From Escherichia phage JLBYU40: 64,000 nt of DNA. Location: the sequence record NC_105514.1; one strand, written 5' to 3'. The stretch's first letter is position 1; the number at the start of each line of letters is the position of its first letter. The translations under genes were made by a program, and so were the position numbers. Below are positions 4,027 to 41,908 of the stretch, piece by piece. Below the pieces are notes generated by a model. It saw only the letters and a program-made list of their open reading frames with translations, was not told the origin of the DNA and ran no database searches.

Positions 4027-4124
4027 GGTAAAAACTCCTATTAGTTTAATTTAAGGGATAAGATTAACATAATGTTAATCATTATATTCCCCATATTTCA
4101 GAGGAATATAAAGTTAACACTAAA

Positions 4125-26831: not shown

Positions 26832-26861
26832 TTCAAACCTCTCTCATCAATTTATAAATAT

Positions 26862-26890
26862 ATAATAGCAAGAAAAGAGAGGTTTAGCAA
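26862..26890 (-). promoter_or_regulatory. early promoter
   Basis: -35 TTGCTA, 17-bp spacer, -10 TATTAT; leader ATAAATTGATGAGAGAGG. Confidence 0.5.
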
Positions 26891-26907
26891 ATGAATTATT
26901 TCAGAAT

Positions 26908-27255
26908 TTAGTCATAGCACCACCATAATCCACGCTTACGCATGTCATGATCGCGATTATAGTCGTAATTTTCTGGATCTTTCATCACGCGATGTAGTTC
27001 TTGGCGATTCCCTTGACGAACCATTTTATTAGAATGCCACTTAACATTCTTACTAATAGAATTCCAGTTATAACCATCCTTTTTCTCATTACGAATGGTT
27101 GCTTCCTTCATTTCCTGTTCTACATCATCCCAGGATTTAGCATAAATAACACGAATCCAGTAGCCATTTTCTTTTAGGAAAGAATATTCTTGAGAGAATT
27201 GCTCTTTAGACTTCCACCACTGATCACCAGATTGTCTACGATAAGTACGGCTCAT
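26908..27255 (-). CDS. hypothetical Trp/basic-rich protein
   Basis: 115 aa ORF. Confidence 0.45.
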   Translation of the reverse strand: MSRTYRRQSGDQWWKSKEQFSQEYSFLKENGYWIRVIYAKSWDDVEQEMKEATIRNEKKDGYNWNSISKNVKWHSNKMVRQGNRQELHRVMKDPENYDYNRDHDMRKRGLWWCYD

Positions 27256-27376
27256 ATTACCTCCATTAAGTCTTTTAAATTAACCTAATGTGGATGAATT
27301 TTATTATACATAAACTATCTCCCTGTATACAGAAAAACCCCAGACTACTTATTCAATAGCTGGGGTTTGTTATTAA

Positions 27377-27691
27377 TTACAGATCGGGGCGTTCATCTTC
27401 GAAACAGCCTGAGCTGATTCCTTCTCCGAATCCTACAAAGCCATCAAATTCATCATTTGAGATGCCAATAATCATTGCTTCCATTTTCCTGATCTCCGAG
27501 GTTTTCATACCTGCTTTACTATTCTTATAGTATTTGCGAGGGTTCCCACACATCCAACAAGAACAGATGCAAGGAGTAGTAGTGACAATACCTAACCGCT
27601 TGGGGCTTTCTTCATGTGGGAAGACTGTCCAATACTTCTTGCGATTGTTCTTCACACGTTGCCGGTGATGGCGTCTTAATGCTCGATCCAC
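27377..27691 (-). CDS. Cys-rich basic protein
   Basis: 104 aa; CICSCWMC cluster. Confidence 0.4.
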   Translation of the reverse strand: MDRALRRHHRQRVKNNRKKYWTVFPHEESPKRLGIVTTTPCICSCWMCGNPRKYYKNSKAGMKTSEIRKMEAMIIGISNDEFDGFVGFGEGISSGCFEDERPDL

Positions 27692-27772
27692 ACATTTCTC
27701 CTAAAACTTGGGAGATAAATGGAGTTTGCTCGACTACCTTGCGTAGCTGGGAGAAATCGTATCCAAACCCCA

Positions 27773-28141
27773 TTACATCGCCTGAGTAAATGTACGACTA
27801 ATAACGTCGTTCTGTTGTTCACGAGTCAGTGCGTTAAATCGAACAGCGTAGCCAGATACACGGATAGTTAATTGAGGGTATTTTTCAGGATGTTTCTGTG
27901 CGTCTAAAAGCTGATCACGACTTAACACATTGACATTTAGGTGCTGACCGCCTTCGATTTGAGGGGCGACTTCCACTTTGACTTCACGGAAGGCTTCGGG
28001 ATCGAATTGTGGTGTGATACCTTCTAGATCTTCAACTAGAACTTTCTGTTTAAGTTCACCGTTATCGGAGTATAGCTGAATGATCTGATTTTCATGAACG
28101 AGATTGATTACGCCAGATTTAAGATTTTGATATGCTTTCAT
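27773..28141 (-). CDS. autonomous glycyl-radical cofactor (GrcA/YfiD-like)
   Basis: 122 aa; C-terminal RVSGYAVRF glycyl-radical motif. Confidence 0.6.
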
Positions 28142-28183
28142 TAGATCTCCCTGATGTTAGAATTTGGCTCAGCTCTTTATTCT

Positions 28184-28378
28184 CTATAGTTTACCACGAT
28201 ATACAGAAACTGTCTTACCAGTTTGGTTCATAACGTATGCTACTTCATCTTCTTTTAAGAAGATTGCTTGATCTATTCCAGAAATAGCTATGCTTTTATT
28301 TCTGGGATTAAACCCTACGCTTTTACCAACATGGATCTGCTCACCACCATCAGTGGACATTATTTTAACTGTTAACAT
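28184..28378 (-). CDS. hypothetical protein
   Basis: 64 aa ORF. Confidence 0.35.
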   Translation of the reverse strand: MLTVKIMSTDGGEQIHVGKSVGFNPRNKSIAISGIDQAIFLKEDEVAYVMNQTGKTVSVYRGKL

Positions 28379-28415
28379 AATTGCTCCTATATTTAGCTAT
28401 CTCTAGCTCTTTTAA

Positions 28416-28491
28416 TGGTAGTTAGTAGTGGATTTGAACCACTGTAGTCGCTCCGTATGAAGGAGGTGCATAACCACTCTGCCAACTAACT
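28416..28491 (-). tRNA. tRNA (anticodon CAT; Met, fMet or Ile2)
   Basis: hand-folded: 7-bp acceptor AGTTAGT/ACTAACT, T-arm, encoded CCA, anticodon loop TTCATAC. Confidence 0.55.
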
Positions 28492-28587
28492 GTTATGTTT
28501 TACTAGACTAAGTAAGTATTCTTTATACTCTTTAGACCAATTAGCTTTTTTAAACTTTCCTGGACGCATAGTCTTAATTCCTAAATT

Positions 28588-28664
28588 TGGTACTCCGGGA
28601 GGGATTTAAACCCCCGATCTCTCGGTTATCAGCCGAGTGCTTTAGATCGCTAAGCTACCGAAGC
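28588..28664 (-). tRNA. tRNA-Ile (GAT)
   Basis: acceptor with two G-U pairs, T-arm, CCA, anticodon loop CTGATAA. Confidence 0.55.
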
Positions 28665-28665
28665 A

Positions 28666-28893
28666 TTAACATTTTACAGCAGAACGTTTGCCATTTCTAG
28701 GTGCACCTGGAAGTCGTGCACGTTCTGCCATTCTTCGCTTAATCTTTGAGATATCTTCTAGTGTTTGTTCTTCAGGCTTAATACCTGAAACACTACACCA
28801 CTGATTACCATCCCATGCGGTAATGATCATAACACCGTTACTCATGATCTTTTCTGTGAAAGTAATCCTCATTATAGCAACTCGTCTAAGCAA
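28666..28893 (-). CDS. hypothetical protein
   Basis: 75 aa ORF. Confidence 0.35.
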   Translation of the reverse strand: MLRRVAIMRITFTEKIMSNGVMIITAWDGNQWCSVSGIKPEEQTLEDISKIKRRMAERARLPGAPRNGKRSAVKC

Positions 28894-29165
28894 GAGGTAT
28901 ATTTAAGTTTACCATCTTTATCTACTTTGATTTCGACTTCCGCTCGTGGTACTTGACGAACTACACCATGAATCATCTTATAGTTAATAGACTTAGACGG
29001 TTCATAATCTTTTGTGAAGACTTGCTTAATCGTTACTACCTTGTACCCATCACGCGGTGTTAACACAACAACTTGATCACCTTCTTTGATCTTCCAAGAG
29101 CTAGGAAATTCATAGGTATAGCGTTGACCACCAGTTTGGAACACAACAGAAAGATAACGTTTCAT
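28872..29165 (-). CDS. hypothetical protein
   Basis: 97 aa; downstream of early promoter 29195-29223. Confidence 0.45.
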   Translation of the reverse strand: MKRYLSVVFQTGGQRYTYEFPSSWKIKEGDQVVVLTPRDGYKVVTIKQVFTKDYEPSKSINYKMIHGVVRQVPRAEVEIKVDKDGKLKYTSCLDELL

Positions 29166-29194
29166 TTGGTTTCCCTCTCATTAATTTATATAAA

Positions 29195-29223
29195 TATTAT
29201 AACAAGAAATAAGAGAGAAAGCA
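29195..29223 (-). promoter_or_regulatory. early promoter
   Basis: -35 TTGCTT, 17-bp spacer, -10 TATAAT; leader ATATAAATTAATGAGAGGG. Confidence 0.55.
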
Positions 29224-29232
29224 AATGAATTT

Positions 29233-29427
29233 TTAATAAAGTTTAGTCACTTCATAAACTATACTACGAGATTCTTTATTTCGTTCTATTAAATTAGTAT
29301 ATGCTTTTTCAGCTTCATTTTTAGTATTAAAGTCTATAACGTGGGAGGTATTCGCTCTATTTGATTGACTATACCAGATAACTACTAACAGTTTAAACAT
29401 AATAGTCCTTAAATTGGTGCTGGGCAC
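29233..29427 (-). CDS. hypothetical protein (start uncertain)
   Basis: 64 aa ORF; listed start overlaps a tRNA 3' end, so the internal Met near 29400 is more likely. Confidence 0.3.
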   Translation of the reverse strand: MPSTNLRTIMFKLLVVIWYSQSNRANTSHVIDFNTKNEAEKAYTNLIERNKESRSIVYEVTKLY

Positions 29428-29501
29428 AGGATTCGAACCTGCAGCGGGATTACTCCTCCTGATTACAAATCAGGTGCATTCAACCATTCTGCCAACCCAG
29501 C
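29415..29501 (-). tRNA. type II tRNA, anticodon unresolved (canonical register TGT)
   Basis: perfect acceptor, GGTTCGAATCC T-arm, CCA, ~15-nt variable arm; anticodon stem CCTGA/TCAGG with loop TTTGTAA. Confidence 0.45.
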
Positions 29502-29666
29502 AGAACCCGTTATTTCAACGGGATTTCTTTTTCAATAACAGGAGACTTATCAGTCATAACTGCCATTGCCATTTGTTGTAGAAATTCAAAGGTGAAGGCT
29601 ACACGTTCTTCACCAATCTCTACTTCTACACGTTTCTTTTGTTTGTCGATCTTGACTTTTAGGTTA

Positions 29667-29918
29667 TCAGCCATTAGATAGTACAGTACTGGTAGTTGGC
29701 AATACTACAGATGAAGCAACAGTATTTAAATGCTTTCTCCAGTCTAGGTTAAATTGTTTTCGAAACTCTTCATAAGGTTCTTCTGGATAAAAGCTAAAAC
29801 CTCCTTTCTCATCATTCAGGATAACAGTGCCGTCAGTTTGTTCGTATGCTCGGTATGTTTCTCCAATAACAATAACTCGTTTATCAGTACTTTTATTACG
29901 GAACTCAAAAACGTGCAT
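29667..29918 (-). CDS. hypothetical protein
   Basis: 83 aa ORF. Confidence 0.4.
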   Translation of the reverse strand: MHVFEFRNKSTDKRVIVIGETYRAYEQTDGTVILNDEKGGFSFYPEEPYEEFRKQFNLDWRKHLNTVASSVVLPTTSTVLSNG

Positions 29919-29934
29919 AACGTTTCCTTAAAGT

Positions 29935-30010
29935 TGGAGCGGCTAGAGGGAATCGAACCCTACTCAGCGAGGCTTGGAAGGCCTGCGGCACAACCCGTAT
30001 GCTTAACCGC
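29935..30010 (-). tRNA. tRNA-Gly (TCC)
   Basis: acceptor GCGGTTA/TAGCCGC, T-arm GGTTCGATTCC, CCA, anticodon loop CTTCCAA. Confidence 0.55.
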
Positions 30011-30018
30011 TTATTATT

Positions 30019-30094
30019 TGGCTGGAGAAGGAGGAATCGAACCTACCATTAACGGAGTCAAAGGCCGTTGTGCTAACCGTTACACTACTCTCCA
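30019..30094 (-). tRNA. tRNA-Gln (TTG)
   Basis: U1-A72 acceptor, anticodon loop CTTTGAC, CCA. Confidence 0.55.
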
Positions 30095-30100
30095 ATTATT

Positions 30101-30176
30101 TGGCTGGGATGCCACGGATCGAACGTGGAACCTTCGGAGTCAGAGGCCGACGATCTGCCAATTGATCTACATCCCA
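30101..30176 (-). tRNA. tRNA-Gln (CTG)
   Basis: U1-A72 acceptor, anticodon loop CTCTGAC, CCA; close paralog of the previous tRNA. Confidence 0.55.
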
Positions 30177-30188
30177 ATAATTTTTATT

Positions 30189-30383
30189 CTACGGAAAAAT
30201 TGTTGTTGGCTCAGATTCTTCCAAACGTTTGCCTTCATGATCTACTCGAATAACTCCGCATCCCTCGCAAATCACAACAGCACCGTAGCCTTCTTTAACT
30301 TCAGCTTCTGTAATCAAACCAGAAAGATCACCAGTATCTCTGCCCCACATATCAATGGAGCATTGTTTGCAGAAATCAGCCAT
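30189..30383 (-). CDS. hypothetical Cys-containing small protein
   Basis: 64 aa ORF. Confidence 0.4.
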   Translation of the reverse strand: MADFCKQCSIDMWGRDTGDLSGLITEAEVKEGYGAVVICEGCGVIRVDHEGKRLEESEPTTIFP

Positions 30384-30408
30384 ATTTTATTTCCTATTTA
30401 AGTTAATT

Positions 30409-30485
30409 TGGGGTGGCTAGTGGAATTCGAATCCACATAGGCCTGATTCACAATCAGGATCATTAACCAATTATGATATAGCCAC
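30409..30485 (-). tRNA. tRNA-His (GTG)
   Basis: perfect acceptor, D, anticodon (loop TTGTGAA) and T stems; discriminator C; CCA. Confidence 0.65.
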
Positions 30486-30853
30486 AATTGAAAACTCGCA
30501 GGGTTAGCGAAACCATCCTCAATTAGCATGTTCTAGAATACTAATCAAGTTATCTCCTATTGCACGCAGCTCAAGACGAGTACGAATTTTCAATTGTGGC
30601 GGCTCTCCGAAACTCTTCTACTCTAGCCTTAGCAGCTTACTCCCGAACGCATGTCGGGAAAGTCTTACTAAGAGCATCAAATAGCACCGTTACACTTTGA
30701 GCCATTGATGTATCAAGGAATAGAAGGACTTGAACCTTCATGAGTTAGACCATTTAACTCAACCGCTTTTAAGGTATATTTCTAGGAGTGGATGTTCCTA
30801 GTAAACCTATTGGGCAGTCCCGTCTACCAATTCCGGCATATTCCAAGAATTAT

Positions 30854-31105
30854 TTAAAACTTATAGCCTTCAGGAACCTTATCTTTAACACCGTCATACT
30901 TAGCCTGAATGTAGTAGTCTGGTACATGATCTTTTGGCAGATTTTTATTAGTATCATGAACCTCAGCTCTAGCTTCTTCTTCAGAATCAAAGCCACGATA
31001 CCAGATTTCACCGCCCCACCCACGTTCACTTTCAGTATACTTAACAATATGTTTCATAAGGTTTTCCTTATAAGTTGGAGGAAGGTAATGGAGTCGAACC
31101 ATCAC
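30854..31105 (-). CDS. hypothetical protein
   Basis: 83 aa ORF between tRNA blocks. Confidence 0.45.
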   Translation of the reverse strand: MMVRLHYLPPTYKENLMKHIVKYTESERGWGGEIWYRGFDSEEEARAEVHDTNKNLPKDHVPDYYIQAKYDGVKDKVPEGYKF

Positions 31106-31165
31106 CGTATCACTACAGCGGGCTAGTTTTCAAGACTAGTTGCGTACCACTACGCCCTACCTTCC
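31076..31165 (-). tRNA. tRNA-Ser (TGA), type II
   Basis: acceptor GGAAGGT/ACCTTCC, anticodon loop CTTGAAA, long variable arm, CCA. Confidence 0.55.
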
Positions 31166-31172
31166 ATTTGTT

Positions 31173-31263
31173 TGGCGGAAGAGGAGAGATTTGAACTCTC
31201 AAGCCGTTTTACCAGTCAGCCACTTTCCAAGCGGTTTTCGTCGCCAATTCGATTTGCTCTTCC
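31173..31263 (-). tRNA. tRNA-Ser (GGA), type II
   Basis: perfect acceptor, T-arm GAGAG-TTCAAAT-CTCTC, CCA, long variable arm; 4-bp anticodon stem with one G-U, loop TTGGAAA. Confidence 0.45.
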
Positions 31264-31299
31264 AATAATAAGATGATGCCTCTATCACACCAGGCAGTT

Positions 31300-31372
31300 A
31301 CGCCTCGCTGGGATTCGAACCCATTAAAACAGCTCAACCGAGATAGTAGGTTTAGTTTACTCTGACCATCAA
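31300..31372 (-). other. tRNA-like element (T-arm only)
   Basis: canonical T-arm (rc of CTGGGATTCGAACCC) in a slot between two tRNAs, but no complementary acceptor or anticodon stem found. Confidence 0.2.
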
Positions 31373-31375
31373 ATT

Positions 31376-31452
31376 TGGTGCGTGACAAGGGATTCGAACC
31401 CTCAAAACCCGACTTCTAAGGACGGTATGTATGCCAATTCCATCAATCACGC
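31376..31452 (-). tRNA. tRNA (anticodon TAG, Leu-type; short variable loop)
   Basis: good acceptor, T-arm, CCA; anticodon stem has one U-U mismatch, loop CTTAGAA. Confidence 0.4.
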
Positions 31453-31457
31453 GTATT

Positions 31458-31531
31458 TGGTGGAGAAAGAGGGAGTTGAACCCTCGTCTTCTGCGTGCAA
31501 AGCAGATGTTCTACCATTAAACTATATCCCC
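31458..31531 (-). tRNA. tRNA-Ala (TGC)
   Basis: G3-U70 pair in acceptor, anticodon stem TCTGC/GCAGA, loop TTTGCAC, CCA. Confidence 0.6.
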
Positions 31532-31769
31532 AAATTCTTTAGTTTACTAAGGCTATTAGCTCGGCGTAACTACAGCACCTTCGCTTCGAGCGGAAGTAAC
31601 CGCGTCATCTCGCAAACCCGATACACTATTCAGTTGCCGCTGAATCTAGTGGACTAATCTAGAACCTCTCCCAAATCGTAGGGATCGTGCTTTTTGGCAG
31701 CCAGTCCTAGGTCGAGCTAATACCTTAGTGAACTATGATGAGGATTTCTCCTCATCAATTTATATAAAT

Positions 31770-31798
31770 ATTATAACAAGAAATTAAGCATCAAGCAA
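31770..31798 (-). promoter_or_regulatory. early promoter driving a noncoding leader plus tRNA block
   Basis: -35 TTGCTT, 17-bp spacer, -10 TATAAT; about 200 nt without a plausible ORF before tRNA-Ala. Confidence 0.5.
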
Positions 31799-31816
31799 AT
31801 GAGTTTTTCTTGAAAT

Positions 31817-31895
31817 TGGTAGATCGCCTGGGACTCGAACCCAGAACCTTCCGATTAAAAGTCGGATGCTACTAAACCTATTGAGCTAGCGATCT
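31817..31895 (-). tRNA. tRNA-Lys (TTT)
   Basis: perfect acceptor, anticodon stem TCCGA/TCGGA, loop CTTTTAA, CCA. Confidence 0.6.
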
Positions 31896-32084
31896 ATTAA
31901 TAACTATTGTATACTTCTTTAATAGAGTGAACTTTCAAGTAAGGGTGATTAGTACTAAACTCTATCATTACTTCATCCCAATTTTTACCATAATGAGCAA
32001 GTAAGGATTTTGATGTATTCTTACCTAAACGTTTGTCACTTACTACTAATCGAAATACTTTCATTTCGAAATCCTCTATTAAAG

Positions 32085-32162
32085 TGGAAGCGGGTGCAGG
32101 AATCGAACCTACCTCTTTCTAGCTTATGAGACTAGCGATCTCTACCAGAGATCTAACCCGCA
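32085..32162 (-). tRNA. tRNA (anticodon CAT; Met, fMet or Ile2)
   Basis: unpaired 1-72 (U-U), D-stem GATC/GATC, anticodon loop CTCATAA, CCA. Confidence 0.45.
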
Positions 32163-32168
32163 ATTGTT

Positions 32169-32246
32169 TGGTCTCCGTGGGAGGATTTGAACCCCCGACC
32201 CTATCGCCCCAAACGAAACGCTCTGGCCAAACTGAGCTACACGGAG
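32169..32246 (-). tRNA. tRNA-Pro (TGG)
   Basis: perfect acceptor, D-arm GCTC/GAGC, anticodon loop TTTGGGG (stem with one U-U), CCA. Confidence 0.5.
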
Positions 32247-32619
32247 AATATTATTTCTTTAACCACAGCAAAGATAAGCCCAGCATACTAAAACCGCTAA
32301 CTAATCCGATACATTTTTCTTCTATAGTAAAAGTATCTAGATTAAATGCTGTTATAGCTATTGGCATACACCATAATGCCATAAAAACTTGAGATATCTT
32401 GTGTTTCATTTTGCTTTCCTTCTCTTCACTTTATAAAATATATTATACAGATAATAAAGCAGAATAGCAAATGAATTTTTAATAAATTTACTTATTGTGT
32501 AGGCCACCTGGAGGCTACCAACCCCACGGCTGACAAAGAAGTTTGCGAGACCTCTCTTAAATGCCAGAATAGACCCGCCGGTCTATCGGAACCTACATAA
32601 TAAGTAAACTTTATAGTGT

Positions 32620-32740
32620 CATTCTAGACAGGACTCGAACCTGTTATCACTTGTGCGGACTTACGAGAACCATTCTTTCACTCGAATCGAACGAGCTTCT
32701 GCCCCCGCCAAGCTGGTTTCCCCATCAACCACGCTAGAAT
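32620..32740 (-). other. oversized tRNA-like element (~120 nt)
   Basis: canonical T-arm (rc of ACAGGACTCGAACCTGT) but the only complementary acceptor partner lies ~115 nt away; no CCA. Confidence 0.2.
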
Positions 32741-32862
32741 GTTTGATTGTTTTCAGTGCAAGAGTCCGAGTCTTGGACACGACCGCTTCGCAAGTACATA
32801 GGCGGCTTATCATGAGTCAGCACTTCCGAATTGCTAGCTTCGTGTTCTGCACTGAAATTTTG

Positions 32863-33210
32863 TTAATTTAATAGTAAAGTACGATCTACTTCACCATTAA
32901 TTGTTCGGCATTCTTCTGGGATTGCTGGTGTAGTCTTATATTCCCACCATTCAGAACCATCATATTCACCACGTTCTAACCAAGTTCCATCGGTAAACCA
33001 TACGTTACCATAAAGCAATTGTCCGCCGAAACCAGAATCATATTTAAAGTCTAGATTATCTAGAAAATCTTCAATATCTTTTTCTGTATAACCTACGGGT
33101 AATACCCAAACTTCTTTATCCCCATAATAACCGAATTCTATCTTAATACACTTAACTTCAGAATTAGTATTCTTTAGGGCAAGTAACAATTCTTCTTTAG
33201 CATTAATCAT
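32863..33210 (-). CDS. hypothetical acidic protein
   Basis: 115 aa ORF. Confidence 0.45.
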   Translation of the reverse strand: MINAKEELLLALKNTNSEVKCIKIEFGYYGDKEVWVLPVGYTEKDIEDFLDNLDFKYDSGFGGQLLYGNVWFTDGTWLERGEYDGSEWWEYKTTPAIPEECRTINGEVDRTLLLN

Positions 33211-33236
33211 AGCGTATTTCTCGTGCTAGTTTAGTT

Positions 33237-33313
33237 TGGCGCGACCGATGGGATTCGAACCCACATTCTCTCCCGTGACAGGGGAGTACCATTACCAAGC
33301 CAGCCCCGGTCGC
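33237..33313 (-). tRNA. tRNA-Asp (GTC)
   Basis: perfect acceptor, anticodon stem CTCCC/GGGAG, loop CTGTCAC, CCA. Confidence 0.65.
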
Positions 33314-33322
33314 ATAATTCAT

Positions 33323-33508
33323 TTACTCAGCTTTGAGTTTTTCAATAGCTGCATTAAGTTCCTTAAGAAACTCTTTTCGTACATTAAGACGATTAAGACT
33401 TACTAGTATATCATGTTTAAGTTCTTCGATGTATTTCTTCTCAACTTCAATATTGTTGATAGTGCTATCACGATGAACTTCTAGCTGTGCAATTACGTTC
33501 TTGGACAT
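33323..33508 (-). CDS. hypothetical coiled-coil protein
   Basis: 61 aa ORF. Confidence 0.35.
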   Translation of the reverse strand: MSKNVIAQLEVHRDSTINNIEVEKKYIEELKHDILVSLNRLNVRKEFLKELNAAIEKLKAE

Positions 33509-33610
33509 GCTTGTTTCCTCAGTTATTAATGAAAATGGTATCTGTGGCTGAATTCGATGTCAGCAATGATAGCTGGTTGGCTACCGGTTTACTTAACTCT
33601 ACACAGAATT

Positions 33611-33688
33611 TGGCGGTTCCTGCTGGATTCGAACCAGCAACCCTCAACTTAACAAGATGCCGCTCTAACCAATTAGAGCTAAGGAACC
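33611..33688 (-). tRNA. tRNA-Asn (GTT)
   Basis: perfect acceptor and T-arm, CCA; anticodon loop TTGTTAA but stem has two mismatches. Confidence 0.45.
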
Positions 33689-34183
33689 ATATAAGTCAGA
33701 ACTAGAGTTAATACGTTCTAGATATTTACTAAGATCTCTAGAATTTATACTAAACCACTCATGTTCTTTTAAATCTTTGAAATACTGGTGAATTAGTTTT
33801 TCACCTTTTCGTTTGTCAAACCAAAAAGACCAATGCTCTAACTTATAATCCCTATAAGGGGAATAAGTCTGATATTGAGCTAATCTCTCTTTTGGATTTT
33901 GACTCATACCTATTTTATACTGATTTTTCCATGCAGGATTACTAATACAGTATACAAAACCTTCAGAAATAGGAAGTTTATTTTCCTGCTTAAACTTTAT
34001 AAAGGAAAGTGCAGCAAGTTTTCTCGAATACATAGTATTTGTATTCTTTTTGGTATTACCATTGGTTCCTGAAAGATTTATATATTCTTCCATAAATCTT
34101 TGGATTAGTTCTGCGGTTATATAGAAGGGCTCATTAGTAACAATACCTTTCTTTACCAAACTATCAAAAACTCTTGTATGCAC
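33665..34183 (-). CDS. T5orf172-domain (GIY-YIG-like) protein
   Basis: 172 aa; GFVYCISNP...YKIGMSQNPKERLAQY resembles the T5orf172 motif; 3' end overlaps tRNA-Asn by ~24 nt. Confidence 0.55.
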   Translation of the reverse strand: MHTRVFDSLVKKGIVTNEPFYITAELIQRFMEEYINLSGTNGNTKKNTNTMYSRKLAALSFIKFKQENKLPISEGFVYCISNPAWKNQYKIGMSQNPKERLAQYQTYSPYRDYKLEHWSFWFDKRKGEKLIHQYFKDLKEHEWFSINSRDLSKYLERINSSSDLYGSLALIG

Positions 34184-34204
34184 TACTTCTTTCCTTTAGT
34201 AATT

Positions 34205-34280
34205 TGGACGACCGCATGAGATTTGAACTCACATAAAAAGGATTTGCAATCCTTCGCCTAAGCCATTCAGCCAACGGTCG
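34205..34280 (-). tRNA. tRNA-Cys (GCA)
   Basis: acceptor with terminal G-U, anticodon stem AAGGA/TCCTT, loop TTGCAAA, CCA. Confidence 0.55.
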
Positions 34281-34357
34281 GTTTATCTTGTTCTGTCATG
34301 TTGCTTCTCCAGTTCAATTTATGTAATTATTATACAGAACTTTTGGAAACTAAGCAA

Positions 34358-34627
34358 CTACATTTTTAAGAATTTGATGCCTTTCTTTTTCTTCTTATAT
34401 TTCCACGTTAATGGATTCTGCCGATTGTGAACGCTTGAGATCTTCGTCTCGTCAAAGTTCTTCAATATCATGTAATCACAAGATAATTGTTCTAATGGAA
34501 TGTGATCACCGTCAAAAGCATATACATAAGGCTGTTGACTAACACGATAATGATAGACTTTGTTAATTCTACGTTTTAGCGACTTATCAGCGCAGTAAAT
34601 AAAGAAGTTTTCAGGATGCATCAGCAT
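34358..34627 (-). CDS. hypothetical basic protein
   Basis: 89 aa ORF. Confidence 0.4.
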   Translation of the reverse strand: MLMHPENFFIYCADKSLKRRINKVYHYRVSQQPYVYAFDGDHIPLEQLSCDYMILKNFDETKISSVHNRQNPLTWKYKKKKKGIKFLKM

Positions 34628-34638
34628 CTCCTTCGATT

Positions 34639-34713
34639 TGGTGCACCCTGTTCGTATCGAACGAACCTCTCAAGCTCTTCAGGCAAGCGCTAATCCATCT
34701 CAGCTAAAGGTGC
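34639..34713 (-). tRNA. tRNA, probably Phe (GAA)
   Basis: good acceptor, T-arm, CCA; anticodon loop CTGAAGA but stem has two U-U mismatches. Confidence 0.4.
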
Positions 34714-34719
34714 AAATTT

Positions 34720-34796
34720 TGGCAAACCTACTAGGACTCGAACCTAGACCGTACGGTTTTGGAGACCGACATGCTGTCCAGTAACACTCTAGGAAT
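34720..34796 (-). tRNA. tRNA-Trp (CCA)
   Basis: anticodon arm CGGTCTCCAAAACCG as in bacterial tRNA-Trp; perfect T-arm; acceptor has two U-U mismatches; CCA. Confidence 0.5.
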
Positions 34797-34804
34797 GCAG
34801 AAAT

Positions 34805-34881
34805 TGGCGTCCTGTGCGGGGATCGAACCCGCAAATCCTACCTTGAAAGGGTAGTGACTTTACCAGTTTGTCTAACAGGAC
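34805..34881 (-). tRNA. tRNA-Glu (TTC)
   Basis: perfect acceptor, anticodon stem CTACC/GGTAG, loop CTTTCAA, CCA. Confidence 0.65.
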
Positions 34882-34888
34882 TTAAATT

Positions 34889-34979
34889 TGGTGTTGGATG
34901 ATGGAGTCGAACCACCCGAGACCCTTCCGAGTCGGCAGATTTACAGTCTGCTTCGCTACCTCTACGATACTAATCCAAC
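34889..34979 (-). tRNA. tRNA-Tyr (GTA), type II
   Basis: anticodon arm GCAGACTGTAAATCTGC, long variable arm, CCA. Confidence 0.65.
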
Positions 34980-35107
34980 ATATTTAAAAGTATTCAAATA
35001 CTAGTTTAAACACTTTTAAATATGTTTCCGAATTAGATAACTATTATATCAAGTTTTAAGGCACTGAGCAAGTCAAATTTTAAAGAACTTGCTCAGTGCT
35101 GTATTAG

Positions 35108-35383
35108 TTAGTCGAACTTAGGAGTGACAGTTAAGGAGAACGGAAGTTCGAAAACTTCTTCGCCCTCATTACTAACGGTAACTACACGACCTTTAAGTTC
35201 AGACATTAAAATATCAATATCAGCTTTTGCATCTGGAGCCATGCCAGCTTCAATACATTTAGCTTTAACTTCCGGTAAAAGCTCTACGTTATAGAGATAG
35301 AGCCACTCAATCTCACCTTCCCAGTCTTCCCAGGATTTGCAGATTGCACTTTCAATACCAGTTGCTACAACACGATTTTGCAT
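35108..35383 (-). CDS. hypothetical acidic protein
   Basis: 91 aa ORF with early promoter upstream. Confidence 0.45.
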   Translation of the reverse strand: MQNRVVATGIESAICKSWEDWEGEIEWLYLYNVELLPEVKAKCIEAGMAPDAKADIDILMSELKGRVVTVSNEGEEVFELPFSLTVTPKFD

Positions 35384-35473
35384 TAATTAACTCCTTCATC
35401 AATTTATATAACTATTATACCAGAAATTTAAAGTAAAAGGCAAGTACATTTTTAAAAATTCTGTTTGGAGGAG

Positions 35474-35680
35474 CTAAACTCCAGATTTTTCGGCCAAGTC
35501 TAGACTAATAAGAGTTATAGCCATAATTGCTGCACCGTGTTCTTTTTCTCCGGTGTTTTTAGCAGAGTCTATAATATCCTTAATCTGTTCGTAATAACTT
35601 TTTACTTCTTGTTCAATGCCTGCCTCGGCTATCATGCCTTTAGCCATGAATCGTTGCATGGTAATTTCAGGATTAGCCAT
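35474..35680 (-). CDS. hypothetical protein
   Basis: 68 aa ORF. Confidence 0.4.
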   Translation of the reverse strand: MANPEITMQRFMAKGMIAEAGIEQEVKSYYEQIKDIIDSAKNTGEKEHGAAIMAITLISLDLAEKSGV

Positions 35681-35855
35681 GTTGTTTCTCCAGTTTCATT
35701 TTTAATAGTTTACAGATGAAATCAACGTCTTCATCTGTGCCTAAGTCTCTATCCTCAAGGGTCGCCTTGAAGTTTTTCGTCAATTCCATGAGGATGACTT
35801 CCCTAGAACGACGTGTTGGCGGAGGTGGATGTCTATACATCTTATTTCCTTAATT

Positions 35856-35932
35856 TGGTAGGGGTGGTGGGATTCGAACCCACAAAACCTGAATTTTAAG
35901 TCCAGTACCTATGCCAATTCGATTACACCCCC
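35856..35932 (-). tRNA. tRNA (anticodon TAA, Leu-type; short variable loop)
   Basis: acceptor GGGGGTG/CACCCCT, anticodon stem CTGGA/TTCAG, loop CTTAAAA, CCA. Confidence 0.45.
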
Positions 35933-36148
35933 GTGTAATTTAGTCAATTACTTTTGAAGCTTCAAGGTAGTCGATATAGTGTACGTTTTCTACCGTAATC
36001 ATATAATCTGCCACTTTATCCATAGCTTGGGCTTCAGAGGTAGCTCTGGCTAACCTATATCCTTTTTTATATTCATCAGAGTATTCTCTATCTTGAATAA
36101 ACACAACATAAACTACGTATAATTCCACTTGTAACCCCCTAATTAAGT

Positions 36149-36226
36149 TGGTGGCTCCCCGAGGATTCGAACCTACGTACCTTCCGGTTATGAGCCGGGT
36201 GCTCATACCATATGAGCTTGAGAACC
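36149..36226 (-). tRNA. tRNA (anticodon CAT; Met, fMet or Ile2)
   Basis: acceptor with two G-U pairs, D-arm GCTC/GAGC, anticodon loop CTCATAA, CCA. Confidence 0.5.
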
Positions 36227-36232
36227 AAAATC

Positions 36233-36321
36233 TGGCGGAAGAAGTGGGAATCGAACCCACAAGGCTATATTTCAAACCGACAGATTAGCAATCTGCTGCA
36301 ATACCGTTATGCTATTCTTCC
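36233..36321 (-). tRNA. tRNA-Ser (GCT), type II
   Basis: perfect acceptor, anticodon stem GCAGA/TCTGT, loop TTGCTAA, long variable arm, CCA. Confidence 0.6.
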
Positions 36322-36342
36322 GAATTTATAAGATATATTATA

Positions 36343-36862
36343 TTAGAAATTTAGCTTCATAGCAAGAAAATTTTTCAAGTTTTCGGTAGACATCTCATCT
36401 ACATCTACAGGAGAAACAAAGCCGTTTAATTTTCTAGCAAATTTTTCACCATCGGGATCATTGTCTCCAACAGCTACCAATTTAAAAGGTAGTAATTTCA
36501 GTTGCTTTAATAACGCTTTTCCTGGAGAAGAACCCAACATTGCTAGGGCTGGATAACCAGCGTTATGTAACGCAACTGCCTTAAATACAGATTCAGCAAT
36601 CAATACTACTTTTTCATCTCCATTGAGAGTTTCTAGTCCCCATACACACTGGGTAGTAGAATAAGTAAAGTATTTAGCTTCAAAGGGGCACTTACCATGA
36701 CCTTTTGGAGCAGAAGGATTATAAGTTTGATAGCCCCTCAACATCCCAGAGAAGTCATACAACGGGACTGTTAGCCATCCTTCTGGACTTAACCAGCAAT
36801 GATATTTATCTGTATCAAATCCCCTAGATAAGAGGTGCTGTGTTAGCTCATCAACATTCATA
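36343..36862 (-). CDS. Toprim-domain protein
   Basis: 173 aa from the Met at 36862 beside an early promoter; IAES...VAVGDNDPDGEKFA resembles the Toprim E + DxD signature. Confidence 0.45.
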
Positions 36863-37036
36863 TTTGGTTCCTCTCTCAAATTTATAGATATATTATACAG
36901 AGAATTTAGCATTCAAGCAATCAAATTTTTTAACTTTTTAGAGGAAAATCATAGGGCGCTTAAGGGTAACAGATAAGTGGTGAGGACCAAAATTTGTGAC
37001 CCCACTAAAAATCCGGGGGCAATTTTTAAAGACCCC

Positions 37037-37065
37037 TTGACATTTTCGCTGGGGTAGTGTAAAGT
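37037..37065 (+). promoter_or_regulatory. sigma70-type promoter of the plus-strand island
   Basis: perfect -35 TTGACA (37037-37042), 17-bp spacer, -10 TAAAGT preceded by TG; unlike the phage early promoter family. Confidence 0.5.
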
Positions 37066-37127
37066 ATATGTTATGGATGAGTGATCAAAGAGACACACAT
37101 TTTCTATATACTAGGAGGTGTCAAAAA

Positions 37128-38114
37128 ATGACAGAAGAAGTAGCTAAGAGTCCTGAGACCGTCGCTAGCGTTGCAGCAGAACTGCACCGTCACGAGGAAT
37201 CAGATAAGAAAAAGTGGGAGAAGGTCAGAGCCTACGAAGAAAAACATCGTGAACACGATGATGAAGAAGATGACGATGATGAACATTGTCATAAATATGG
37301 AAAACATAAAATGCAAGAACCAGTAAACGTATTCACTAGTGGCTTCCCTGGCCTACTGGGTGGTTACCCAGCAAACGCAGGTGCTTTCGGTGGTGAAGGT
37401 ATGGGACTATTCGGAGCTATCCTAATCGGTGCTCTATTAACAGGTGGATTCGGTGGTTTCGGTGGATTCGGTGGACGTGGTGTAGTTGGTGAAGGTACCG
37501 CAGTTGATGCAGTACTTCAGAACCAAGATACCGCTAGTATTCTAGCAGCTATTAACACTACTCGTACAGAAGCTAATCAGGGTACTGGGGCTGTGTTAAG
37601 CGCAGTTAACAATGGTTTTAGCCAGACATCCCAAAACCAGAGCCGTGATACTCAGTCTGTACTAACTACGATTTATGGTACAGGTGCTAATCTGTCTAAT
37701 CAGATCTGCCAGGAAACTCGCAACGTTATTCAGGGTCAGTTCGATCTTTCTCGCCAGATTGATCAATCTTTCGCAGCTAACCAGATAGCTCGTGCACAAG
37801 ATAAATTTGATTCTGCACAGATCGCTTTCCAGCAGACTTTACAAACTAATAACCAGTTTGCCGCTGTTCAGGCTCAGATGTGTGCTAACCAGAACTCTCT
37901 GGAACGTCAGATCGCTGAATGTTGCTGTGAACTTCAGACTGCGATCGCTGGTGTAACTACTGCGCGTATCCAGGATGAGTTAGATGCATGTCGCCTACGT
38001 GAGGCAATCGCTGCGGGTAATGGTGCTAACGATCAGGTAATTAATCAAATCGCTGTAAGTCTTGGTGCAATCACTCAGACTCTGGCTGGTCTGCAGGCTA
38101 AACTGCCGGCTTAA
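37128..38114 (+). CDS. glycine-zipper membrane protein with acidic/His-rich N-terminus and Q/N-rich C-terminus
   Basis: 328 aa from ATG 37128 (RBS TAGGAGGTG); GLFGAILIGALLTGGFGGFGGFGG segment; CCC motif; GC visibly above flanks. Confidence 0.55.
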   Translation: MTEEVAKSPETVASVAAELHRHEESDKKKWEKVRAYEEKHREHDDEEDDDDEHCHKYGKHKMQEPVNVFTSGFPGLLGGYPANAGAFGGEGMGLFGAILIGALLTGGFGGFGGFGGRGVVGEGTAVDAVLQNQDTASILAAINTTRTEANQGTGAVLSAVNNGFSQTSQNQSRDTQSVLTTIYGTGANLSNQICQETRNVIQGQFDLSRQIDQSFAANQIARAQDKFDSAQIAFQQTLQTNNQFAAVQAQMCANQNSLERQIAECCCELQTAIAGVTTARIQDELDACRLREAIAAGNGANDQVINQIAVSLGAITQTLAGLQAKLPA

Positions 38115-38135
38115 TATTAAGGGGAGGAGCCCATT

Positions 38136-38552
38136 ATGAGTAAATATGGTTTTGTAAATAACGGACTTAATCAAAGTATGGGCTCCCAGCAGCCCATTCC
38201 GGGTCTGGATAACCCCTACTTACAACAATTGCAACAGCGTTTAGCAGAAGCGCAACAGATGCAGCAACAACTCCAGCAAAACCCTGGAAGTGTGAGTCCT
38301 ATGCAAATGATGCAGCAAATGAGCGGGCAGTCGCAAATGCCTCAACAAATGCAGCAACAGGTGCCTCAGCAGCAAGTTCAGCAACAAACCCAACAACCGC
38401 AGGTTTCTGCGGAAGGACAGGCAGTACTAGCCCTTTTCGAAGACTTCGCAAAGACAGAGGATGGGAAACAGCTTGTATCACTTATGGGTAAGTTTAATAG
38501 CTTCTGCCAAAGCCAGGTTGCAAAAGCTCAAAATAGTGGTAATAACTCCTAA
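38136..38552 (+). CDS. glutamine-rich low-complexity protein
   Basis: 138 aa; RBS GGGGAGGAG; long Q/M/P-rich stretch. Confidence 0.5.
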   Translation: MSKYGFVNNGLNQSMGSQQPIPGLDNPYLQQLQQRLAEAQQMQQQLQQNPGSVSPMQMMQQMSGQSQMPQQMQQQVPQQQVQQQTQQPQVSAEGQAVLALFEDFAKTEDGKQLVSLMGKFNSFCQSQVAKAQNSGNNS

Positions 38553-38561
38553 GGAGGAATT

Positions 38562-38756
38562 ATGTGTTGCAGAAAATCTGTTTCGTGCTGCCCAATGCCT
38601 GTAGCACGTTGTTGCTCTCCAGCAATGTTTACGCAAATACCGGCGTTCAATCCGTTTGCCTTTAAGCCTACTCTTATCCTGCCCCCTAGAGTAGATTTTC
38701 AGTCAAGATTGGCCTCCCGTATGGGTAGTTGCTGTAACAAGAGTATATGGTTCTAA
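38562..38756 (+). CDS. small Cys-rich protein
   Basis: 64 aa; RBS AAGGAGG; four CC doublets. Confidence 0.45.
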   Translation: MCCRKSVSCCPMPVARCCSPAMFTQIPAFNPFAFKPTLILPPRVDFQSRLASRMGSCCNKSIWF

Positions 38757-38769
38757 GGAACCAAACAAT

Positions 38770-38810
38770 AAAGCCCCTAGTCGAAAGACTTAGGGGCTTT
38801 TCTTTTATCT
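38770..38810 (+). terminator. Rho-independent terminator of the plus-strand island
   Basis: ~11-bp GC-rich stem with GAAA loop followed by TTTTCTTTTATCTT. Confidence 0.6.
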
Positions 38811-38851
38811 TAAATACAGAAAAGCCCTGCGCTCTCTAGGAAACGCAGGGC
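38811..38851 (-). terminator. Rho-independent terminator for the SPFH gene
   Basis: 9-bp stem AGCCCTGCG/CGCAGGGCT with a T-run on the minus strand. Confidence 0.55.
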
Positions 38852-38876
38852 TTATTTCAGATGTTACATGCGGGTA

Positions 38877-39824
38877 TTATTTATTACGCATATCCATAAT
38901 CATTTGGCCATCATAGCCAGTGCCAACCACAGTCTGCGGTACACCACCTTGGTATTTCTGAGCACGAATCATTTCAACTTCCAGTTGCTTCCAGCGAATC
39001 ATCTCAGGAGTAATGGTACGTTGCAATGCGGCGTTAGCTTCAGCTTCTTTCTTAGCTGCATATAGTTTAGCATCTGCGTCACGTTCATTGGCAATAGCTT
39101 GGTTGTTGCGAGCTTCACGGTCTGCTTCTGCTTGTTTAACTTTTTGCTGTGCTTCCTGTTCAACGCGAGCCAGTTCAGCTTTCGCAGCATTAACTTGCTC
39201 TTCACGAACTTTGGTATTCTGTACCTGTTCCATGATTACCGGTGGCAAAGTAATATCCTGAAGGAATACCTGCTTAACTGTATAACCATATGGGCGTGCA
39301 TACTCTTCAACTTCCTGTTGAATTGCAGTTTGCAATTGAGCCTGAATTTTAGCATCAAACAAATCTTGTGCTTTAGGTACAGACTTACCAAACTCACGAA
39401 TAGTAGACAGTAATTTTTCAGTTACATACTTGTCTAGTGCCTGATCCTGAGTACCTGCGTTAATACGGTTAATTGGTGCCTTAGAACCATCAAACTGCAA
39501 CATAACAGTCAGGTCAACAGTGGATTTAAACTTATCCTGGCTAGGAACCTGAAGTTTATCTAATTTTACAGCAATATCTTTTGTACTAAAAGTGTCGAAA
39601 GATGCAAATGGGTTTACAAGATGGAAACCTGGTAATACTGGGTTAGGATCTACTTTACCCAGAAATGTTTGGGTTTTAACCGTACCATCAGAAACAATAG
39701 TATATGAATTAAAAGCTAGGATTAAACCTGCTAAACCAACTACAGCACCAATACCCCAACGTTTAATAGTACGAATTACTTTCTGCTCAGAAGTCAGTTC
39801 TTTCATATTTTTAGTATTAAACAT
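38877..39824 (-). CDS. SPFH/band-7 (prohibitin/HflC-like) membrane protein
   Basis: 315 aa; N-terminal TM helix, SPFH-like core, long charged coiled-coil C-terminus. Confidence 0.6.
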   Translation of the reverse strand: MFNTKNMKELTSEQKVIRTIKRWGIGAVVGLAGLILAFNSYTIVSDGTVKTQTFLGKVDPNPVLPGFHLVNPFASFDTFSTKDIAVKLDKLQVPSQDKFKSTVDLTVMLQFDGSKAPINRINAGTQDQALDKYVTEKLLSTIREFGKSVPKAQDLFDAKIQAQLQTAIQQEVEEYARPYGYTVKQVFLQDITLPPVIMEQVQNTKVREEQVNAAKAELARVEQEAQQKVKQAEADREARNNQAIANERDADAKLYAAKKEAEANAALQRTITPEMIRWKQLEVEMIRAQKYQGGVPQTVVGTGYDGQMIMDMRNK

Positions 39825-39858
39825 ATATTTCCTTTGTTTTAGTTACAGTTAATAAAAT

Positions 39859-39933
39859 TGGCCGAGGTGACAGGATTCGAACCTGCATAAAGGAATTTAG
39901 AAGACTCCTGCCTCTCCCTTAGACTACACCCCG
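39859..39933 (-). tRNA. tRNA-Arg (TCT)
   Basis: acceptor CGGGGTG/CACCTCG, anticodon stem GGAGT/ATTCC, loop CTTCTAA, CCA. Confidence 0.5.
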
Positions 39934-40435
39934 TTTAAGTATTTTTAAGAACTCTCGTAAAAACTCTTAAAAATACAGACGATACCGGGAGAGTCATAGG
40001 TCTCACTCATTAAGTATTTCAAGACAAAATACAGTAACGTCTATTATTTTCCAGTTTAAGTCAGGGTGACTTAGTGGTTATGTCCTGCGGTATATTGAGG
40101 ACTCGGTTAGGCTTGGGGTCATGACTTCCCGCCTTTTGCTGCTACTCAACAGGAGTTATCGCGAATTACCTGTGCTATTGTGCACCATTAGTGACATCTC
40201 TCATGCCAGCATTTCCCACTTTGTGGATAGCTTGAAAAACTACTCCGATATGGAGAAAGAACTTCACTATCCTAGAATACCTTCTAAAGTTCTTCTTTAG
40301 CCTGGACATAGTTAAATCGTAATAAAACTATTCAGCAGACCGGTTGGTTAGTCTGGAACCAACTACCGCGTGGTTTAGGCAGTGCGCAACTAACCTCGGA
40401 AGCTTTTACGTTAAAAGCATCAGTTATCCAGTTCT

Positions 40436-40507
40436 TACCGACCGTAGGATTCGAACCTACATCTTCCACCAGTTACGGCTTGATAATACCAATTATACTA
40501 GGACGGC
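40436..40507 (-). tRNA. tRNA, anticodon unresolved
   Basis: perfect T-arm, acceptor with one U-U mismatch, no encoded CCA; no convincing anticodon stem by eye. Confidence 0.3.
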
Positions 40508-40730
40508 AGTGTTACTACATAAGTGATTTCCACACCCCACTATTTATAAATTAGAGAAGAGTTTAGGGAAGAGGTTTCAGACGCCTCATTTTACACGTTC
40601 TAGCCACTAACCGGGATTGCCGCCCCCTGTGTACTAGTTTTACAACTAACCCACCGACTCTATTCAATGCACTCCGGTTGGGATTCTGCACTCAGCGTAA
40701 TCGGCTCGCTGTTCCCTAATTTATGAATAT

Positions 40731-40759
40731 ATTATACAGAATTTATAAGCATTTAGCAA
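40731..40759 (-). promoter_or_regulatory. early promoter
   Basis: -35 TTGCTA, 17-bp spacer, -10 TATAAT. Confidence 0.5.
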
Positions 40760-40767
40760 ATGAATTT

Positions 40768-41202
40768 TTAGAAAAATTCACTAGCGATCAAAGCAGTTGT
40801 TTTACCGTCATAACGTCCAGGAAATTCTGCCTTAATAGTTTTCATTAATAGAGCTTTGGTAATACCTGGGTTTAATTTAACCAGTTCTGCAAAATACTCA
40901 CGAATTTCAGTTTCAGTCAGTTGACTTGGCTGATACTCTTGCAGCATGGAATAAAGCAGTTGCTCATAGTCTACATCAGTAGGAACTTTCGTACCAACTT
41001 TAATAGCGCGCTGCTTTGCATTTTCTAGAGCCTTAATCTGAGCTTTCAGATAGGCTACAAACTCGGTTCGAGTAACAATGTCTTTATCAATACGTTGCAG
41101 GTCGCCAATCATGGTCTGAAGATTAAGTGCCCGCTCTTTATCACCGTGAGTACGTGCTAGACTAAGCAGTCCACGAAGGGTCATTAGGATATTTTCACCC
41201 AT
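40768..41202 (-). CDS. hypothetical protein
   Basis: 144 aa ORF. Confidence 0.45.
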   Translation of the reverse strand: MGENILMTLRGLLSLARTHGDKERALNLQTMIGDLQRIDKDIVTRTEFVAYLKAQIKALENAKQRAIKVGTKVPTDVDYEQLLYSMLQEYQPSQLTETEIREYFAELVKLNPGITKALLMKTIKAEFPGRYDGKTTALIASEFF

Positions 41203-41440
41203 TATTTCATCCCCAATGCTTGGTTAAAAGATTGTTCTGTCATAACTGCTGAGACTTTGGCGAAATCAAACTTTTTAGGGTTCGTAGTGATTTCAGCAAC
41301 GTTAGAAGTTTTAACAGTTTTCGTAGTACGAATACCGCGAGTGTTAACACCAATAATTACAACTGATTTCATATTTCGCTTCCTCTCATTAATTTATGAA
41401 AGTATTATACAGAAATTTAAGTATTTAAGCAAGTAAATTT

Positions 41441-41908
41441 TTAAGTTTTAGTGACAACAGGTTTATAAAACGTATGTCCCTTAATCTTAGTTGTTTTCTT
41501 AAACTTCTTTGTCCAGTAAGGTTTATCTTTACCACTATGGAAGTATAGTGCTCCATGTGTAGGATCTTGTGGTAAATCAACGTAGTATATCACTCTAGCT
41601 AAATTCTTAGCGGTTTGCCAAGCCTCATCAGTTTTATCAACTTTTGGTCTCTTAGATACCCAAGAGAACTGGTTAGACTGATATACTACTTTACAGTAGG
41701 AATCTGGGAATTTACCGGAGTTTACACGGTTTTTAGTAACATGTGCAATCGCCGTCATTCCCTTTATGCCCTCACCACGACTTTCGAAATAGATATTTTT
41801 AGCAATGCAATCTATTTCTTTTGCATCGTGCGATGCCTGACTACTAAAGCTGAAGGTAAGGGCAGCTACTAAAAGCAAAGCTGCCTTCATTCTTTTTACT
41901 ACTGCCAA
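41441..41908 (-). CDS. secreted cell-wall hydrolase (SleB-like)
   Basis: 155 aa; signal peptide; IAHVTKNRV...FPDSYCKVVYQSNQFSW resembles the SleB hydrolase core. Confidence 0.5.
   Translation of the reverse strand: MAVVKRMKAALLLVAALTFSFSSQASHDAKEIDCIAKNIYFESRGEGIKGMTAIAHVTKNRVNSGKFPDSYCKVVYQSNQFSWVSKRPKVDKTDEAWQTAKNLARVIYYVDLPQDPTHGALYFHSGKDKPYWTKKFKKTTKIKGHTFYKPVVTKT

Follow-up and report, generated by a model that had tools for sequence, protein, structure and literature searches.

This study examined a stretch of about 200 nt that separates an early promoter from a block of tRNA genes in Escherichia phage JLBYU40 (NC_105514.1). All coordinates refer to the window, the 64,000-nt stretch of this genome that was analyzed. 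An earlier note on this DNA had proposed that the stretch is noncoding and yields a processed leader or small RNA. The flagged stretch and its flanks matched 444 phage records, nearly all from Escherichia or Salmonella T5-like phages, and the part of the window from 28.4 to 39.9 kb contains 22 tRNA genes by ARAGORN, every one of them on the minus strand. We therefore recognize here the early tRNA region of a member of the T5-like phages (Demerecviridae), with minus-strand transcription. The features in and around the segment are as follows, in the order of transcription:

31770-31798, minus strand: T5-type early sigma-70 promoter (−35 TTGCTT at 31793-31798, 17-nt spacer, −10 TATAAT at 31770-31775)
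31736-31757, minus strand: 5' hairpin of 9 bp, UGAUGAGGA-GAAA-UCCUCAUCA, with a GNRA loop
31551-31722, minus strand: mature RNA2H, 172 nt, with ends according to the T5 RefSeq record (5' UAUUAGCUCG..., 3' ...GCUAAUAGCC)
31532-31550, minus strand: 19-nt spacer from the putative RNase III site to tRNA-Ala, UUAGUAAACUAAAGAAUUU
31458-31531, minus strand: tRNA-Ala(UGC), first tRNA of the co-transcribed block

Promoter and identity of the transcript

The tRNA-Lys gene, which ends at 31817, precedes the promoter on the minus strand. The TTGCTT and TATAAT hexamers of the promoter, with their 17-nt spacer, span exactly the promoter coordinates given in the earlier note. In BLAST alignment, window 31744-31817 was 92% identical to T5 promoter P13b, of which this promoter is the orthologue, and transcription would start at approximately 31763. 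The predicted promoter has the features expected of a T5 early sigma-70 promoter, namely a TTGCTT-like −35 hexamer, a 17-nt spacer, TATAAT, and an A-rich upstream region; it also has ATATT at the boundary of the −10 hexamer and the discriminator, a feature described for T5 early promoters (PMC7472727). A simple consensus scan missed it because TTGCTT matches TTGACA at only three of six positions. It belongs to a family (D2) of T5 early-promoter modules of about 75 nt, of which seven copies were counted between 26 and 42 kb and at least seven are present from 26834 to 41451 (for example, 29168-29243, 32415-32489, and 35386-35461). Conservation of this module reaches approximately 20 nt into the transcript (AAATTGATGAG / AAATTAATGAGAGG) and supplies the Shine-Dalgarno sequence in other copies; in the copy studied here, that sequence is folded into a hairpin.

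This 5' hairpin hides the Shine-Dalgarno-like GAGGAG, lies outside the mature RNA, and is probably a stabilizer of the 5' end. Its loop is GAGA in two relatives, and in phages of the fp01/phiR2-01 type the hairpin is replaced by a domain of about 110 nt. The Sugarlandvirus phages have no 5' hairpin, and the first helix of the RNA (P1) begins at their transcription start.

The transcript runs for about 232 nt from the probable start to tRNA-Ala (31531), and its longest reading frames, which start with TTG and GTG, have 19 and 18 codons, respectively, in agreement with the earlier description of a noncoding stretch of about 200 nt ahead of the tRNA block. The 12-codon ATG frame mentioned in that description (MRRNPHHSSLRY, with its stop codon, at 31717-31755) is present as well. 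Homologues carry 1-nt insertions or deletions, and no open reading frame is preserved among them. These results demonstrated that the segment has no coding capacity.

A counterpart was found in the RefSeq record of T5 (NC_005859), in which a misc_RNA feature at 31808-31979, between promoter P13b and tRNA-Ala, is annotated as gene rna2H, locus T5s04, "RNA2H, stable RNA with unknown functions". BLAST placed T5 rna2H at window 31551-31722 on the minus strand, with 97.7% identity over all 172 nt, and the window has the same neighbors, the P13b orthologue upstream and tRNA-Ala downstream. The two phages differ in that JLBYU40 has no tRNA-Val between tRNA-Lys and the promoter and has a tRNA-Ala allele only 68.9% identical to that of T5. 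A covariance model built from 30 homologues scored 227 bits on the window and found one copy only, with no paralogue anywhere in the 64 kb. We conclude that the segment is very probably the orthologue of T5 rna2H, a 172-nt stable, structured, non-coding RNA with the biogenesis proposed below, its stability and exact ends being those of the T5 RefSeq annotation carried over to JLBYU40 by sequence. The flagged element is thus a catalogued T5 stable RNA and not a novel entity, a point that the earlier note had missed. T5 stable RNAs are said to have been cloned by Ksenzenko et al. in 1982; literature searches covering RNA2H, the stable RNAs of T5, and its transcriptomes turned up no study of function. 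Another T5 record (AY587007) has no RNA2H annotation, and in most GenBank relatives the locus is blank or overlaid with a spurious "hypothetical protein". The feature coordinates of AY587007.1 are also displaced by 68 nt relative to its sequence; tRNA-Val, for example, is annotated at 3980-4053 and was found at 3912-3985.

An RNA fold kept by compensatory substitutions

The 234-nt transcript had a predicted folding energy of −83.3 kcal/mol. This corresponds to z = −5.5 relative to 200 shuffled sequences with preserved dinucleotides (−58.5 ± 4.5 kcal/mol), none of which was as stable. Two alignments were examined: A4, with 30 distinct homologues, and A6, in which six Klebsiella phage sequences were added. 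In A4, 99.2% of cells were able to pair, versus 29-42% when the partners were slid, and none of 500 shuffles came up to the observed score for pairing or for covariation. In A6, pairing was 97.9%, versus 27-44% in the slid controls, and 19 pairs changed on both sides, many pairs being uninformative because much of the RNA2H sequence is nearly invariant. These results demonstrated that compensatory substitutions have maintained the RNA2H fold in Tequintavirus, Epseptimavirus, and Sugarlandvirus. The structural model, which is added here and is supported by covariation, consists of a 21-bp closing helix (P1), P2' and Palt in a pseudoknot topology, three hairpins (P2b, P3, and P4), and a long P5 arm:

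31713-31734, minus strand: P1, 5' strand, AGUUCACUAAGG followed by UAUUAGCUCG, with the putative RNase III cut between them (31723/31722)
31703-31707, minus strand: P2', 5' strand GGACU, pairing with AGUCC at 31651-31655; 100% paired
31686-31697, minus strand: conserved unpaired motif CCAAAAAGCACG (CCAAAAAACACG in Sugarlandvirus)
31669-31684, minus strand: P2b, variable hairpin UCCC...GGGA; two pairs covary
31645-31663, minus strand: Palt hairpin, UCUAG-AUUAGUCCA-CUAGA; all three core pairs covary (phage SB13, Sugarlandvirus)
31629-31644, minus strand: P3 hairpin, UUCAG-CGGCAA-CUGAA
31610-31621, minus strand: P4, weak 3-bp hairpin UCG-GGUUUG-CGA within the conserved GUGUAUCG..UUUG.GA; one-sided changes only
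31568-31606, minus strand: P5, long variable hairpin; seven pairs covary, with a C-G to U-G to U-A series in L009/L012
31541-31563, minus strand: P1, 3' strand, CGAGCUAAUAGCC followed by UUAGUAAACU, with the putative RNase III cut between them (31551/31550)

The 21 pairs of P1 were 98.6-99.8% paired across the homologues, and five of them changed on both sides when Sugarlandvirus was included. Four of the five P2' pairs changed on both sides between the T5-like and the Klebsiella phages, and within the Klebsiella phages one pair occurred as U-G, U-A, or C-G. In Salmonella phage SB13, Palt carries a double compensatory change. Since the Palt loop contains the 3' strand of P2' (AGUCC, 31651-31655), the two helices form either an H-type pseudoknot or two alternative states, and the latter may apply because the loop connecting the pseudoknot would be very short (0-1 nt). 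In Sugarlandvirus, P3 is ACGC-CCUGGUAA-GCGU, with the loop residues GG.AA retained. Epseptimavirus and Sugarlandvirus have an additional hairpin of 22-26 nt at P2b and share a second version of P5 with the loop UGGCUAAU.

Comparison with Sugarlandvirus corrected the fold predicted from energy and brought out P2' instead. Three helices of the minimum-energy structure, P2 (CCUAGGACU:AGUUCUAG), P2a (GCU:AGC), and P3-outer (CACUA:UAGUG), were rejected as conserved features, being absent in Sugarlandvirus and broken in phage SB13. The near-palindromic hairpin CTTCGCTTCGAGCGGAAG, to which the earlier note had drawn attention, is present; its coordinates are 31579-31596 on the plus strand, 11 nt from the 31590-31607 given in that note, and it is the tip of P5, one arm of a multi-helix RNA of about 170 nt. 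Conserved G-U pairs, among them U13-G211 of P1 and a number of P5 pairs, are compatible with a minus-strand transcript only.

The insert of about 110 nt mentioned above (L008, L015, and L033-L036: fp01, phiR2-01, saus132, 1-23, and PRF-SP12) retains the stem of the 5' hairpin, UUGAUG...CAUCAA, as its closing stem in these loci. Parts of it resemble the P2a/P2b module (GCUACCGAAAAAGAGAUCCUCAGGAU versus GCUGCCAAAAAGCACGAUCCCUACGAU), a likeness that hints at a partial duplication of RNA2H. With a folding z of −1.3, it was not accepted as a clearly structured domain.

In all, 538 phage records matched the segment, 423 of them over at least 80% of the query. The promoter and the RNA form a constant cassette with changing neighbors: upstream there is tRNA-Lys, tRNA-Val, tRNA-Glu, or a 354-nt CDS, and downstream there is either a 264-nt CDS (phages 1-19 and PRF-SP12) or tRNA-Ala. 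Klebsiella phage IME260, a Sugarlandvirus, has a diverged homologue that the covariance model from A4 detected at 67 bits (E of approximately 1e-17), with the same order of a T5-type promoter, the RNA, tRNA-Ala, and tRNA-Leu(UAG), and RNA2H was present in all 81 Klebsiella phage records. The family thus extends to the Klebsiella Sugarlandvirus phages, which is an addition to the known annotation. Covariance-model searches of the tRNA regions of Aeromonas phage AhP_Mru1 (Shenzhenvirus) and Proteus phage PM135 (Novosibvirus) found no homologue. No match was found by BLAST (E ≤ 10) in 5,426 complete E. coli genomes; therefore, there is no detectable host copy or host mimicry. A metagenome scan added near-identical T5-type copies only. 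Two loci from a 16-mer scan of viral contigs (L014 and L028) were dismissed as chance matches, as were most loci from degenerate-pattern scans. No Rfam 15 family matched the segment or three variant loci at E ≤ 1, including the riboswitch, ribozyme, 6S, Y RNA, ROOL, and GOLLD families.

Processing and possible roles of RNA2H

The ends annotated in T5 lie in the middle of P1 and not at its base; the 5' end is U13, following G11-G12, and the 3' end is C213. They leave a 2-nt 3' overhang (CC), with G11-C213 and G12-C212, which are invariant in all three genera, between the staggered cuts. In vivo, E. coli RNase III leaves 2-nt 3' overhangs with G-C between its cuts (PMC6212723). P1 has the geometry expected of a substrate for this enzyme, being intramolecular and about two turns long (21 bp), with staggered ends that leave the 2-nt overhang and with the two G-C pairs lying between them. 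From this match we infer probable excision by host RNase III, a reading of the RNA2H ends that is added here and follows from the geometry of the annotated ends. Host RNA polymerase starting at approximately 31763 would produce a polycistronic RNA containing the 5' hairpin, RNA2H, tRNA-Ala, tRNA-Leu, and further genes; RNase III would release RNA2H by a double cut in mid-P1, after G 31723 and after C 31551, and RNase P would trim the 19-nt remnant off tRNA-Ala. The earlier proposal of a processed leader or small RNA is thus supported by the stable-RNA annotation of a 97.7% identical orthologue, by ends inside a long helix with the overhang expected of RNase III, and by compensatory changes that keep the fold in three phage genera.

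Phage RNase III processing helices are familiar from T7 early RNA and the T4 tRNA precursor. P1 differs from them in what it encloses, about 150 nt of conserved, multi-helix RNA, which is itself the stable product. ROOL, GOLLD, and the T4 species 1 and 2 RNAs are likewise ornate non-coding RNAs of unknown function that occur in phage tRNA arrays. With its 172 nt, RNA2H is much smaller than ROOL and GOLLD and matches neither Rfam model at E ≤ 1.

Two viable T5 deletions (29191-32442 and 30661-38625) both span rna2H (PMC11464382, the PARIS study); therefore, RNA2H is dispensable on the laboratory host. As a tentative best guess, we suggest that it is a trans-acting, protein-binding accessory RNA. 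The excised RNA would persist as a compact particle, and its invariant unpaired motifs (CCAAAAAGCACG, GUGUAUCG..UUUG, and the GG.AA loop) would bind a host or phage protein, giving an accessory and not an essential benefit, such as host takeover or counter-defence. The motifs that suggest such protein recognition, which is itself a guess, are CCAAAAAGCACG, GUGUAUCG..UUUG.GA, GG.AA of P3, and, in two genera, UGGCUAAU of P5. Searching the window for antisense targets yielded two 12-mers only, the number expected by chance. A more specific version, in which the bistable or pseudoknotted core neutralizes a host factor such as an RNA-sensing or RNA-cutting defence protein or an RNA-processing enzyme, is speculative and on balance improbable; if true, it would constitute an RNA-based counter-defence or host-takeover device common to Escherichia, Salmonella, and Klebsiella T5-like phages. 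Recent work has located counter-defence functions in the tRNA region of T5-like phages (tRNA-Lys, acting against PARIS); therefore, a conserved accessory RNA located there is a reasonable candidate for a similar role. T5-like phages are in wide use for therapy and biocontrol. RNA2H occurs in over 400 genomes of Escherichia and Salmonella phages and in 81 genomes of Klebsiella phages, and it is now a defined target, with a covariation-backed fold, probable RNase III excision, invariant unpaired motifs, and no Rfam family.

The RNA could instead be a mere leader for processing or stability, in which the 5' hairpin and P1 provide RNase III entry and serve to separate or stabilize the tRNAs, and the excised fragment is a functionless by-product. 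The RNase III-type geometry of the ends, the location at the head of the tRNA block, and the dispensability of rna2H in the laboratory all agree with this explanation, as does the role of RNase III in phage T4 tRNA synthesis (McClain 1979, as cited in PMC4810235). However, approximately 22 bp suffice for an RNase III site, whereas here conservation covers about 150 nt enclosed by the helix, and the three genera share covarying helices as well as unpaired motifs that do not vary. Moreover, the promoter and RNA cassette keeps its sequence while its neighbors change (97.7% identity to T5 for RNA2H, 68.9% for the adjoining tRNA-Ala), and T5 annotates the product as a stable RNA. We regard a simple leader as rather unlikely. 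A cis-acting riboswitch or attenuator governing read-through into the tRNA genes is very improbable: a multi-helix junction with a long closing helix, located in a 5' leader, does resemble many aptamer domains, and competition between the two central helices could provide a switch, but neither a terminator nor an expression platform lies in the 19-nt spacer between P1 and tRNA-Ala, P1 with its 21 bp is too stable for toggling, no Rfam riboswitch matched at E ≤ 1, and the T5 product is annotated as a discrete stable RNA.

Nor does the tRNA cluster location make a degenerate tRNA or tRNA-like element a good explanation, even with neighboring T5 stable RNAs (RNA1 and RNA2) annotated as tRNA-like. 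Neither ARAGORN nor the Rfam tRNA clan (E ≤ 1) gave a match in 31532-31765, and the covariation-supported fold contains no cloverleaf, so that we allow this reading only a very slim chance. Least credible of all is a small protein gene or a feature of the DNA itself, for instance the target of a homing endonuclease or a nick site, in place of an RNA gene. Many GenBank records do place a "hypothetical protein" over the locus, and HNH homing endonucleases populate this region of T5; however, the transcribed strand offers at most 19 codons and the homologues contain 1-nt indels, the 91-aa frame on the plus strand runs antisense through two tRNAs, and the helices change by compensatory substitution, with conserved G-U pairs that would be C-A mismatches on the other strand.

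Neighboring tRNA genes and stable RNAs

Orthologues of other T5 "stable RNAs with unknown functions" were observed in the window:

30704-30847, minus strand: RNA1 orthologue (tRNA-like), 94% identity to T5
32496-32598, minus strand: RNAIV orthologue, 97% identity to T5
32617-32741, minus strand: RNA2 orthologue (tRNA-like), 96% identity to T5

ARAGORN called none of these three, and the RNA1 orthologue gave a single, sub-threshold Rfam tRNA match (30715-30783, 23.9 bits). T5 RNAI, RNAIV, RNA1, and RNA2 share with RNA2H the tRNA region and the annotation class, and they are present in the window; they have no sequence or structure relationship to it, the RNA2H covariance model having found its one copy only. 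RNA1 and RNA2 are called tRNA-like, whereas RNA2H is not.

The tRNA-Val(UAC) gene that lies in T5 between tRNA-Lys and the promoter is absent in JLBYU40 (window 31799-31817, compared with 3912-3985 in AY587007.1, our locus L001), and no tRNA-Val was called anywhere in the 64-kb window. The tRNA-Ala genes of JLBYU40 and T5 are diverged within flanks of approximately 97% identity, and Epseptimavirus phages have two tandem tRNA-Ala genes at the same site, a pattern that suggests cassette exchange of tRNA genes.

Three Rfam tRNA-type matches on the minus strand had no ARAGORN report. Those at 36152-36226 and 40436-40507 scored 40.3 and 35.5 bits with the tRNA model, above its gathering score, and that at 29938-30011 was a sub-threshold tRNA-Sec match of 29.6 bits. 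ARAGORN recovered a tRNA-Ser(GGA)-like gene at 31173-31263 (minus strand) only when its threshold was relaxed; neither its default settings nor Rfam (E ≤ 1) detected this gene, the counterpart of T5 tRNA-Ser2(GGA), which carries a pseudogene label in one T5 record. Between tRNA-Leu and this gene, at 31290-31375 (minus strand), T5 carries the HNH endonuclease gene hegC at the matching position. The JLBYU40 stretch has no callable tRNA and contains a perfect T-arm-like sequence, GGGTTCGAATCCC, and it may be a tRNA remnant.
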